A stretch of 29,571 bases of DNA. It comes from an uncultured Gammaproteobacteria bacterium. Lineage in GTDB: Bacteria; Patescibacteriota; Microgenomatia; JAMCZE01. Below, in pieces: positions 20,768 to 23,095 of this stretch (position 1 is the stretch's first letter; every line of letters begins with the position of its first letter). The notes under the pieces are model-generated. The model was not told the DNA's origin, searched no databases, and was given only the letters and a program-made list of their open reading frames with translations. The DNA lies in the NCBI GenBank assembly GCA_964597255.1, contig CAZQWX010000063.1:1-29571 (forward strand), in the 5' to 3' direction. Both the position numbers and the translations under genes were made by a program.

Positions 20768-20864
20768 GGCTTGTGGTATTAGTATTCTTTTGGCCGGCAA
20801 AAAAGAACCAGGCAATTAACCCGGCTAACAACAATCCGCCGACAGTGACCAAAACTTTATCCAT
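20757..20864 (-). CDS. Small membrane peptide (35 aa) resembling the CupA N-terminal anchor
   Basis: Manual translation [35 protein letters not shown]; overlaps both the csoR stop and the copA start. Confidence 0.65.
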
Positions 20865-21129
20865 GTCTTTTGTGCAAAACACTCATGACCTCAGCGATGG
20901 CTTTTTTGGAATTACCTTTCTTGATTTCGTCGGCGACACAACTTTCCAGATGGTTGGCCATAACCTGATCTTCAGTTTGTTTAATTGCTTCGCGTACGGC
21001 CTGCATCTGGTGCAAAATGTCGATGCAATAAACATCATCCTTAACCATCTGTAACACTTTTTCCAAATGGCCAAGGGAAATCTGCAACCGGTGAATAATG
21101 GCTTCCTGGGTGTCTTTTGGTCGATACAT
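20857..21129 (-). CDS. csoR: CsoR/RcnR-family metal-sensing repressor
   Basis: RLQISLGHLEKV...CIDILHQMQAV...HLESCV (Cys-His-Cys ligands); heads the copA operon. Confidence 0.9.
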   Translation of the reverse strand: MYRPKDTQEAIIHRLQISLGHLEKVLQMVKDDVYCIDILHQMQAVREAIKQTEDQVMANHLESCVADEIKKGNSKKAIAEVMSVLHKRHG

Positions 21130-21136
21130 GGTGTTT

Positions 21137-21166
21137 ATCGTAATCCCTCCCGGGGGGATATGTCAA
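21137..21166 (-). promoter_or_regulatory. cop promoter with CsoR-type G/C-tract operator
   Basis: TTGACA-18 bp-TACGAT; the spacer holds ATCCC-CCCGGGA-GGGAT; the ATG is 7 nt after the -10 (leaderless). Confidence 0.75.
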
Positions 21167-21197: not shown

Positions 21198-21986
21198 TCA
21201 AGGGAGAAAGTTGTGGTCGGATCTTGAACACCAGAAATTAAAAATGGCTAACCATTGGGCAAACGACAAATCAGTCGGTTTGGCATGAAGACTAAAATGA
21301 TTAGCATCGGCCAGTCGCTTCCATTGATTAAAAGTAAATATCTTCTTCAGACCAACTTTTAGATCCTTTTTCCAGGTGCCGAAAGCGAATTTGATGAAGT
21401 TCTTATAGAGCAGCTCCTGGTCAGGGGAAATCAGAGGGATTGTGCGCTTGGTAATCGTTAGTAGGACAATATCCACTTCTGGGGCTGGTTGGAAATCTGT
21501 CTGATTAAACTTCCAAATGAGACGAAAATCGAACCACGGCTTGGTCAAAAGCGAGGCTTGGGTTTCCCTGGGAAGACCGGCAAACTTTTCGGCGGCTTCT
21601 TGTTGAACCACCAGATAGGCAACTTCCGGGGGTCGAGAATAATAAAGCAGTTTATAGATGATGTCGGCGGTGAGGTGAAACGGCAGATTGGCAAAGACCT
21701 TGTAAGGCTGGTTTGGCAGAGAATATTGCCGGATGTCAGCCTGGCAGACGGCAACATTGGGATAGTTTCTGAGATTGCTGCGAAGCTGGCCGACCAGATT
21801 AGTGTCGACTTCCACAGCAATGACCCTGGCTCCGGTTTGAGCCAACTCGCGCGTGATGGTTCCAGTCCCCGCCCCAATATCAACGATTAGGTCGTTAGGG
21901 ACAAACTGAGCTTTGCCCACCAAGTGAGCCACCAGTTTGGGATCCCGGAAAAAGTTTTGCGACAACAATCTTCTTTGTAAATTCAT
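21198..21986 (-). CDS. Erm-like rRNA adenine N6-methyltransferase (Erm/KsgA family)
   Basis: SQNF, VDIGAGTG, VIAVEVD, ANLPF, F.PAPEVD motifs and an Erm-like C-terminus (IFT..Q..RL, LSFAQWLAIF); AAGGAGG before the ATG at 21986. Confidence 0.85.
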   Translation of the reverse strand: MNLQRRLLSQNFFRDPKLVAHLVGKAQFVPNDLIVDIGAGTGTITRELAQTGARVIAVEVDTNLVGQLRSNLRNYPNVAVCQADIRQYSLPNQPYKVFANLPFHLTADIIYKLLYYSRPPEVAYLVVQQEAAEKFAGLPRETQASLLTKPWFDFRLIWKFNQTDFQPAPEVDIVLLTITKRTIPLISPDQELLYKNFIKFAFGTWKKDLKVGLKKIFTFNQWKRLADANHFSLHAKPTDLSFAQWLAIFNFWCSRSDHNFLP

Positions 21987-22080
21987 AAGAACCCCTCCTT
22001 TCGGTCGGGAACCTTGCGCCCGAGCACTTACAGTGTAAACACCTGCGTGTTCGGGGCTAGATACACCTTCCTTTTTGCAC

Positions 22081-22109
22081 ACAAAAAAACCAGTCCTAGT
22101 GACTGGTTT
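22081..22109 (-). terminator. Attenuator terminator in the erm leader
   Basis: Minus strand reads AAACCAGTC-ACTAG-GACTGGTTT followed by further Ts (perfect 9-bp stem). Confidence 0.8.
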
Positions 22110-22177
22110 ACTGATTTATTAGCTATTTAGATTTGGATGCGAATTACCAACACAAAAACCAGCCGCTAGGCGGTTAC

Positions 22178-22216
22178 TTAGGCTTGTGGCCTATATGTGT
22201 CGATAACTTTCGTCAT
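22178..22216 (-). CDS. Putative erm leader peptide MTKVIDTYRPQA
   Basis: ATG 9 nt after TGcTATAAT; the stop abuts the first hairpin of the leader. Confidence 0.6.
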   Translation of the reverse strand: MTKVIDTYRPQA

Positions 22217-22225
22217 ACTTGGTGA

Positions 22226-22234
22226 ATTATAGCA
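22226..22234 (-). promoter_or_regulatory. Extended -10 promoter of the erm leader
   Basis: TGcTATAAT on the minus strand. Confidence 0.6.
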
Positions 22235-22279: not shown

Positions 22280-23095
22280 TTAAAACCACTTCTCAAAAAA
22301 TGACGCCAAATCCTTTGAAAGTTGTGGGCCGATTCCTATCCCCTGCTTCTTATCTCTAAATTTATGTGCAGTTTCGATCTGAACTGCGTTTATTTTATAT
22401 TTTGTCGCATAGTATCGGGTTGTAAATTCTGCGGCATATAAATCTTCTTTTTGGTGTGTGGCGCTTTTATCTCCAGGAACAAATACTTCATATCCTTTAT
22501 GTCTTAGGTATTCACCCATAGCAAGATCGATATCGCCATAGTAAATCGATGTTCTGTTACCGGTACCTAGAATCAGGTCGTATCCACCTTTGGGAGCATA
22601 ATCTGGTTGCTTGGCAAATCCATGTAAATCAATCAAAAGGCAACCTGCCTTGCCGTAACGATTAATTGATTCCTCCAACAACTGCCCGATTGTTCCATGA
22701 TACTGTCTATATTCAGGAGCGTAACGGGAATTTTCCAGAGCAAGTTGCGGTTTCTGACCCTTGTAGTAGCTTCTGGGGATTGGCCAACTTCGGTTCAGAT
22801 CCACCATACCCCTTGGAATATCTCCTTTAACTACACTTATAAATTCGCGGATGTTTAGCCGTTTAGAACCAAACAGAATATCTTTGGCAATAAGCCACAC
22901 TCCAGGATCACCACCAGTGACGCCTTTTCGTCGATCCCTTATTTTGTCTGGCCATTTATAATTTGGCATCCCGTCATGAGGTACTGTAATTACCACCCGA
23001 CTTGGCTTTTTTGCTTGCCAGACCTCAGTAAAGTTTATGTTGGTTACCCGATGGTGTTCAAAGTCAATAAAATTTTTAGCCATAGTGTCAAACAT
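22280..23095 (-). CDS. N-formylglutamate amidohydrolase-family protein
   Basis: VITVPHDG, VDLNR, YH, LLIDLHGF, DLILGTG and AVQIE motifs; GGGAGG 7 nt before the ATG. Confidence 0.78.
   Translation of the reverse strand: MFDTMAKNFIDFEHHRVTNINFTEVWQAKKPSRVVITVPHDGMPNYKWPDKIRDRRKGVTGGDPGVWLIAKDILFGSKRLNIREFISVVKGDIPRGMVDLNRSWPIPRSYYKGQKPQLALENSRYAPEYRQYHGTIGQLLEESINRYGKAGCLLIDLHGFAKQPDYAPKGGYDLILGTGNRTSIYYGDIDLAMGEYLRHKGYEVFVPGDKSATHQKEDLYAAEFTTRYYATKYKINAVQIETAHKFRDKKQGIGIGPQLSKDLASFFEKWF

Follow-up and report, generated by a model that had tools for sequence, protein, structure and literature searches.

A candidate ribosome-mediated attenuator in front of Erm-type methyltransferase and ABC-F genes of Patescibacteria

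How is an Erm-like gene controlled in an uncultured bacterium of the Candidate Phyla Radiation (CPR)? The question is raised by a stretch of 29,571 nucleotides (nt), contig CAZQWX010000063.1 of assembly GCA_964597255.1 (hereafter the window), in which such a gene lies on the minus strand, separated by a gap of 294 nt from its upstream neighbour, an N-formylglutamate-amidohydrolase-like gene (Pfam FGase) with its stop at 22280. A preliminary description made from the letters of the window had read this gap as a leader-peptide attenuator. Our analysis leads to the same kind of reading. It is likely, in our judgement, that the gap holds a ribosome-mediated transcription attenuator, which ties the expression of an Erm-type 23S rRNA methyltransferase to translation trouble. 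A leader made of promoter, upstream open reading frame (uORF), RNA junction and terminator is conserved before erm and before ribosomal-protection ABC-F genes, and masking the uORF switches the predicted fold.

The erm-like gene and its leader

The gene product of 262 residues matches Pfam RrnaAD. It scores above the cut-off of the NCBIfam equivalog model for Erm (NF000499, Erm23S_rRNA_broad; 229.8 bits against 212) and below that of the ksgA model TIGR00755 (146.3 bits against 171). Erm(38), ErmE, ErmAM and ErmC' are the top solved-structure matches in a PDB search, with all KsgA/Dim1 entries ranking below them. The closest named plasmid genes are Erm(53) with 36% and Erm(42) with 34% identity; to ErmA, ErmB and ErmC the identity is 27-32%. 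The motifs GxGxG and N-[LI]-P-[YF] are read in the translation as DIGAGTG and ANLPFH. In a maximum-likelihood tree of 60 proteins, obtained by a quick IQ-TREE search and containing some long branches, nine CPR KsgA-like proteins are set apart from the six Erm references (ErmA, ErmB, ErmC, Erm(42), Erm(50), Erm(53)) and the CPR Erm-like proteins by a branch with 99% support in the Shimodaira-Hasegawa-like approximate likelihood ratio test (SH-aLRT). The preliminary description had called the gene Erm-like and had named a grouping with KsgA as the outcome that would speak against it. Model scores, structure matches and tree all side with Erm, and given the Erm-side placement in the tree the protein does not group with KsgA. 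A second RrnaAD gene of the same genome, found at the end of contig C55 and cut by the contig end, has KsgA as its best model (91 bits, Erm 73 bits). These comparisons support an Erm-type 23S rRNA methyltransferase, distinct from a KsgA-like paralogue. The assembly comprises 0.86 Mb in 165 contigs and is 86% complete; its size and the Patescibacteria and Nomurabacteria names carried by homologues fit the CPR host that had been proposed. An Erm-protein search of a collection of genome contigs gave a 26%-identical Ruminococcus gene as sole match.

The 23S rRNA of three leader-bearing relatives contains GACAAAAAGACCCC, which places an A at position 2058 within confirmed large-subunit (LSU) rRNA. 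The sequence occurs in L092:1501-1517 (genome G051), in L093:222-238 (G029) and in L094 (G007). E. coli has GACGGAAAGACCCC at this site; positions 2056 and 2057 are A in the relatives and A2058 is kept. Since the LSU match of L092 spans 2664 nt over 1724 model positions, this 23S gene has large insertions.

Leader and gene are read on the minus strand, and coordinates are positions of the whole window. An asterisk marks a stop codon.

22226..22234, minus: extended -10 promoter box TGcTATAAT, by direct reading, ending 9 nt 5' of the uORF start codon
22178..22216, minus: uORF of 12 codons plus UAA, encoding MTKVIDTYRPQA* (ATG 22216-22214, TAA 22180-22178)
22143..22207, minus: predicted three-way junction P1/P2/P3, the putative anti-antiterminator (minimum-free-energy fold)
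22207-22196 with 22154-22143, minus: P1, long-range helix of GUUAUCGACACA with UGUGUUGGUAAU, enclosing P2 and P3
22193-22179, minus: P2, small hairpin UAGGC-CACAA-GCCUA (fold)
22175-22157, minus: P3, bulged hairpin AACCGCC-UAGC-GGC(U)GGUU, the "hairpin 1" of the preliminary description
22157..22164, minus: putative antiterminator strand GGCUGGUU, the P3 3' arm, complementary to the terminator 5' arm
22110..22142, minus: A+U-rich unstructured spacer from P1 to the terminator (fold)
22080..22109, minus: intrinsic terminator AAACCAGUC-ACUAG-GACUGGUUU with perfect 9-bp stem, 5-nt loop and U7 (terminator scan; hairpin 22109-22087)
21987..22079, minus: genome-specific insert of ~95 nt between terminator and erm (comparison with relatives)
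21999-21994, minus: Shine-Dalgarno (SD) sequence AGGAGG of erm, by direct reading
21198..21986, minus: erm-like gene, ATG at 21986, 262 residues, with DIGAGTG (S-adenosylmethionine binding) and NLPF (catalytic)

The -10 box, the uORF, hairpin 1 (22157-22175, 2 nt past the stop) and the terminator (22087-22109 plus U-tract) lie exactly where they had been described; the feature start given as 21987 is the base before the ATG, which itself is at 21986. The earlier view had missed P1 and P2, the uORF start 9 nt past the -10 box and the conservation of the leader among relatives. Within the uORF, the 5' strand of P1 is made up of codons 4-7 and P2 of codons 8-12; 2 nt separate the stop from P3. 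The leader of 251 nt is more stable than 200 of 200 dinucleotide shuffles (z = -3.2).

A leader family conserved before erm and ABC-F genes

Leaders before erm were gathered through an Erm-protein search of relatives and from contigs of close homologues in a 5.8-billion-protein collection. A covariance model of the 5' domain revealed a near-identical leader before an ABC ATPase gene in a genome without Erm-protein match. A pattern scan of Joint Genome Institute (JGI) metagenomes found a leader before an ABC-F gene (L042), the product of which passes the NCBIfam model ribo_prot_ABC_F (462.7 bits, cut-off 380). This ABC-F protein, used as query, led back to two already-known loci and to four additional leaders, including reduced forms with the uORFs MRI*, (GTG)KLM* and MRITNK*. 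The resulting set consists of 19 instances and 18 distinct sequences, L041 and L042 being one sequence from two metagenomes. Twelve leaders precede erm, one precedes an NlpC/P60 gene followed by erm, and six precede a ribosomal-protection ABC-F gene.

The common layout runs from a -10 box through a start codon 6-12 nt on, P1/P2/P3, the A+U-rich spacer, the terminator and the SD to erm. It was found at 12 of 13 erm genes of this Erm clade, which is a single clade with 100% SH-aLRT (12 members with leader, one without). Leader subtypes track the Erm protein tree: the leaders with nine codons (type B) cluster inside the clade, and a covariance model built from type-A leaders also recovers those of type B. 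A short uORF lies between promoter and intrinsic terminator in 18 of the 19 leaders; the other one, L028, consists of P1 and then a U-run only. A homologous terminator with the 5' arm (A)ACCAGYC occurs in 16 of 19, and a spacer of ~25-60 nt in every leader with a separate terminator.

How far does the family extend? Over 151 genomes of the class, model R2 gave a true match in the window genome and in G029 only; five weak matches (L036-L040) were rejected as plain terminators. At 28 loci of more distant CPR Erm homologues R2 found no match, and a terminator scan upstream of 34 such homologues found a terminator-like hairpin at two only and no such leader. The leader therefore appears confined to one Erm clade. 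Rfam gave no match to the leader, neither at the gathering threshold nor at E up to 10. Upstream neighbours vary from locus to locus and are frequently on the opposite strand; because the leader nevertheless stays with erm or ABC-F, it belongs to the downstream gene. The sequence comparisons support a conserved family outside Rfam, of what are probably leaderless uORF attenuators, before erm and antibiotic-resistance (ARE) ABC-F genes of one Patescibacteria class.

The junction is supported by covariation. P1/P2/P3 and the terminator are the individual fold of most leaders, and the minimum-free-energy fold of the window leader has the same junction. Standard pairs make up 89.9% of the pair cells when 13 leaders are aligned, as compared to 27-45% with partners slid by 1-3 columns, and 11 pairs show changes on both sides, nine of them in P1 (9 of 12 P1 pairs). 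As this alignment was fitted to the model and is hence biased towards it, RNAalifold was applied to nine leaders in an unfitted MAFFT alignment, from which it recovered P1, P2 and P3. Covariation evidence does not extend to P3 and the terminator stem, as both hardly vary. Covariation in P1 and P2 supports a real junction, in which hairpin 1 is one arm. The hairpin of the preliminary description stands, though not as the sole anti-antiterminator. Leader types differ in how long the uORF is (2-12 codons), in the P2 hairpin and in the bases of the junction; the geometry that puts a ribosome over P1 is constant.

P3 and the terminator are near copies of each other in their 3' halves, each taken with its flank: GGCUGGUUUUUGUGU (22143-22164, minus) and GACUGGUUUUUUUGUGU (22080-22095, minus). 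In five leaders, P3 together with the U-run behind it scores as a terminator; it could serve for pausing or as a first terminator, or be the trace of an origin by duplication. An obligatory first terminator common to all leaders was rejected, since an extra hairpin separates P3 from the U-run in L027 and L005.

The preliminary description had also included a hairpin over the SD of erm. Such a hairpin is present in the window (CCCGACCGAAAGGAGGGG, 22009-21993; -6.7 kcal/mol); in the ensemble, the G residues of the SD are paired to ~95%. It was rejected as a component of the conserved device, because it sits in an insert specific to the window genome that is absent from other leaders. The insert begins with GUGUGCAAAAAGGAAGG (22082-22066), a relic of the SD region in use in L024, and also holds a GC-rich hairpin at ~22062-22011. 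Most erm-linked leaders of relatives, e.g. L024, place SD and start codon no more than ~25 nt after the terminator. Judged by these comparisons, the elements of the insert, including the SD hairpin, are not conserved. In L026 this place is taken by another insert, unrelated and ~150 nt long.

Translation of the uORF is suggested by its two ends. In 18 of 19 leaders an automated scan places a -10-like hexamer 6-12 nt 5' of the start codon, many with TGn extension; the -10 of L033 (TAACAT) was read by eye. The start codon, ATG in 17 and GTG in two leaders, is the only invariant triplet from the -10 box to P1, and no conserved SD for the uORF is seen in the 19 leaders. Because the start codon is that close to the -10 box, the uORF is probably leaderless, with the transcript starting at or within a few bases of the AUG. 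The stop is UAA in 18 of 19; the exception, L006, read as MV-UGA, keeps the ancestral in-frame Ala-UAA. Ala is the last residue in 14 of 19 (Ala-UAA). For comparison, 46% of the long open reading frames (ORFs) at these loci stop with TAA, and few have Ala as their last residue. Whatever the subtype, either the P1 5' strand or the P3 5' arm would lie under a ribosome placed at start or stop. The length of the uORF was discarded as coding evidence, because 9-12 open codons are expected by chance at the local base composition.

Several loci deserve mention in their own right. In L006:2376-2454 (-) and L043:265-301 (-), one sequence found both in a genome and in an independent groundwater metagenome contig, the leader precedes the NlpC/P60 gene and then erm, and the uORF has an in-frame TGA at codon 3 (MV*EVDPNRLIA*). 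Genome G007 holds both a frameshifted erm behind a reduced leader with the uORF MTTSLK* (L009, C1:843965-844713) and an intact ABC-F gene behind a full type-A leader (L072, C1:912334-913821). In L042:2833-3765 (-) a gene for an APH-family phosphotransferase/kinase of 311 residues overlaps the stop of the leader-controlled ABC-F gene. No specific NCBIfam model accepts the protein, which might be a drug kinase encoded in the same operon as ABC-F. Resistance-type genes are also frequent neighbours of the erm genes of the clade, namely a major facilitator superfamily (MFS) transporter downstream (L024) and ABC-F genes downstream (L029, L033) or upstream (L026). In the window itself, the region 3' of erm (20857-21166, minus) has a TTGACA-18-TACGAT promoter with the C/G-rich palindrome CCCCCCGGGAGGG, followed by genes for a CsoR-family repressor and a heavy-metal P-type ATPase.

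The proposed switch and its alternatives

We propose the following course of events. The transcript would begin at or just 5' of the AUG of the uORF, which has 12 codons and no SD. When a ribosome completes the uORF and departs, the uORF sequence would close P1 and lock P2 and P3 in the three-way junction. The P3 strand GGCUGGUU would then be sequestered, the terminator 45 nt downstream would fold and polymerase would stop at U7. When a ribosome is held on the uORF, P1 would be blocked and P3 maybe as well. The cause would be a ribosome-targeting drug, most simply by stalling at Ala-UAA with the footprint over the P3 5' arm. In this case GGCUGGUU would pair with AAACCAGUC upon its transcription, the terminator 3' arm would be left without partner and polymerase would read through into erm. 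In this model the spacer is the time window for forming either the junction or the antiterminator. Translation of the uORF, its leaderless initiation, the stall site, the drug dependence and the identity of the drug are what we infer from the leader sequences.

Folding calculations are consistent with such a switch. CUGGUUU of the P3 3' arm complements AAACCAG of the terminator 5' arm, and in nearly all leaders the P3 3' arm is complementary to the terminator 5' arm (A)ACCAGYC. We folded 17 leaders at the decision point, i.e. with the transcript cut just 5' of the terminator 3' arm, and masked the uORF either through stop+13 (ribosome with UAA in the A site) or at nucleotides 1-16 (ribosome at the start). 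With the uORF masked, 13 of 17 leaders (the window leader and 12 others) have the terminator 5' arm paired to the 3' arm of P3. Unmasked, most leaders keep the junction, and the terminator 5' arm is on the P3 strand in four of 17. The mutually exclusive antiterminator deduced earlier from the CTGGTTT/AAACCAG complementarity is thus borne out by the masked folds. The calculations support terminator and antiterminator as alternatives between which ribosome occupancy of the uORF would choose.

A number of observations weigh against this attenuator. In L006, L031, L075 and L076 the antiterminator is predicted without any mask, and the antiterminator is short (6-9 bp). At full length and at equilibrium, the terminator is still the best fold of most leaders despite the uORF mask. 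A thermodynamic switch was rejected on these grounds; the switch must therefore be kinetic and co-transcriptional. Leaderless initiation in the leader-bearing organisms is itself a point that we infer from sequence. The Thr-Tyr-Arg codons ACAUAUAGG are invariant in type A with zero synonymous change, which could reflect a constraint on the RNA rather than on the peptide. Between types A and B a 1-nt indel changes the reading frame, and the in-frame UGA at codon 3 of L006/L043 is present in two assemblies; a ribosome at this UGA would, by the modelled geometry, still cover P1. Known arrest motifs (+x+, IFVI, IAVV and similar) are not common to the uORF peptides of the 19 leaders, in agreement with the earlier remark that the classic IFVI and R/K-x-R/K motifs are missing here; the one ending that the peptides share is Ala-UAA. 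The 23S rRNA of the window genome was not found in its 86%-complete assembly, and the three sequencing runs that hold the locus, all from mine-drainage metagenome, are DNA.

If the peptide is so variable, the same attenuator might work as a generic stall sensor with no specific arrest peptide, which would respond to any drug that holds the ribosome at the start codon or the first codons, and thereby over the P1 5' strand, irrespective of the peptide. Lincosamides, pleuromutilins and streptogramin A would then act, as has been proposed for the 3-codon vmlR uORF, and TYR..A-UAA would be RNA structure only. This accords with uORFs of 2-12 codons that have little peptide in common (MV*, MRI*, mKLM*, MRITNK*, MTTSLK*, 9-mers, 12-mers), with conserved codons that fall on P1, the P1/P2 junction and P2, and with the finding that a mask on nucleotides 1-16 alone flips most leaders to the antiterminator; the same argument has been made for the vmlR uORF(MIN) (PMC9226507). 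It does not account for the prevalence of UAA ends and of Ala-UAA, which extends over subtypes with different positions of the stop in the structure. Moreover, the type-A stop lies exactly one ribosome footprint 5' of the P3 5' arm, which favours a stall at termination, and Erm and Msr-like ABC-F genes are typical macrolide determinants. We regard the generic sensor as rather unlikely.

Taken to the opposite extreme, the conserved end [D/H/R]-[T/P]-Y-R-x-x-A-UAA, together with the x-A-UAA of the 9-codon subtype, would be a new drug-dependent termination-arrest peptide, read by the unusual CPR ribosome on a leaderless mRNA, in a portable sensor cassette moved by Paceibacteria between erm and ARE ABC-F genes. 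We offer this as a speculative idea of low probability. If it were true, episymbionts would sense a natural macrolide-like groundwater compound by a stall mechanism not yet described.

The constraint on the RNA also invites an explanation without any ribosome, in which the junction binds a small molecule or a protein (e.g. Erm itself, as feedback) and thereby sets termination, with the uORF being incidental. The conserved and covarying junction, the nucleotide-level invariance of ACAUAUAGG in type A, and a peptide not strictly maintained across the A/B frameshift and the L006 UGA would suit such a sensor. Aptamers, however, retain a core, and this leader element does not. A riboswitch-type conserved core is absent, as junction bases and P2 are not maintained among the leader subtypes. 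They are lost or replaced in L075, L076, L083 and L009, in which the start codon by the -10 box and the ribosome-over-P1 geometry persist. Rfam offers no match even at E = 10, and the two regulated gene families have only the ribosome as common client. We hold this RNA-only sensor to be very improbable. That there is no regulator at all, the hairpins serving the amidohydrolase-like gene upstream as tandem terminators and the uORF being a product of chance, may be suggested by the U-runs after both hairpins, by the mutual resemblance of GGCUGGUUUUUGUGU and GACUGGUUUUUUUGUGU and by a 12-codon open frame not being unusual, but it is contradicted by the comparative data and hardly credible, since a -10 box belongs to the leader itself, the genes behind which it accompanies erm or ABC-F are unrelated and often on the opposite strand, P1 shows covariation, and only 2 of the 34 distant CPR Erm homologues have any terminator-like hairpin upstream.

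Implications and comparison with known attenuators

A switch common to erm and the unrelated ribosomal-protection ABC-F genes provides indirect yet independent evidence that these genes answer to translation inhibitors. In the same indirect way it suggests that such compounds are encountered in nature by uncultured bacteria that depend on a host and have tiny genomes, and that these bacteria bear the cost of a protection that is inducible and not constitutive. As a compact and testable example, the leader couples a probably leaderless uORF to an anti-antiterminator in the form of a three-way junction, and its natural peptide variants of 2-12 codons are material for asking what stalls the ribosome at Ala-UAA.

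Among known erm genes, erm(K) and erm(D) are controlled by transcription attenuation, erm(K) with terminators, and erm(C) by translational attenuation and not by termination. Their leader peptides are SD-driven, have 14-19 residues and contain defined arrest motifs (MRLR, IFVI). The CPR leader resembles them in placing a leader peptide before erm and in the remodelling of alternative hairpins by a drug-stalled ribosome, which is known there and proposed here. It differs from them in lacking an SD-driven peptide and a defined arrest motif, and its Erm protein is distant.

Erm-like genes of CPR genomes have been tallied in silico before (PMC8651080; bioRxiv 10.64898/2026.07.13.738296); the words leader, attenuation and inducible are absent from both reports. 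In mycobacteria, operon transcripts are known that open with a leaderless short polycysteine ORF, which acts as a ribosome-dependent attenuator (bioRxiv 10.1101/834739). Position and, as proposed here, leaderless start and ribosome dependence are the common features. The mycobacterial attenuators belong to Actinobacteria and sense cysteine supply via Cys codons, whereas the CPR leader stands before antibiotic-resistance genes of Patescibacteria and has no comparable codon run.

The leaders MsrDL and MefAL of msrD/mefA are likewise leader-peptide transcription attenuators before macrolide-resistance genes (PMC10314930). MsrDL (MYLIFM-UAA) undergoes macrolide-dependent arrest with UAA in the A site, by which the terminator is blocked (PMC10314930), and UAA prevails among MsrDL variants as it does in the erm and ABC-F leaders (18 of 19). 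In msrD, however, the stalled ribosome itself obstructs the terminator and the uORF has a strong ribosome-binding site, whereas the ribosome on the erm leader would act two steps upstream, on the anti-antiterminator and through it on the antiterminator. The peptides are unrelated, and the erm leader is without +x+ motif.

The closest parallel in logic is the leader of vmlR, an ARE ABC-F gene of Bacillus subtilis, for which the sequence of anti-antiterminator, antiterminator and terminator has been demonstrated experimentally (PMC9226507). There, too, a short uORF lies inside the anti-antiterminator, and stalling on it frees an antiterminator that competes with an intrinsic terminator (PMC9226507). 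An optional SD-sequestering hairpin further downstream and the control of a ribosome-protection gene complete the likeness. Unlike the erm leader, vmlR has a uORF (MIN) with its own SD, which sits in the bulge of a single stem-loop; the uORF of the erm leader is without SD and probably at the transcript 5' end, and its codons close a three-way junction. The two leaders have no sequence similarity. By analogy with vmlR, msrD and ermK, the logic proposed for the CPR leader is of a known kind in a new form.

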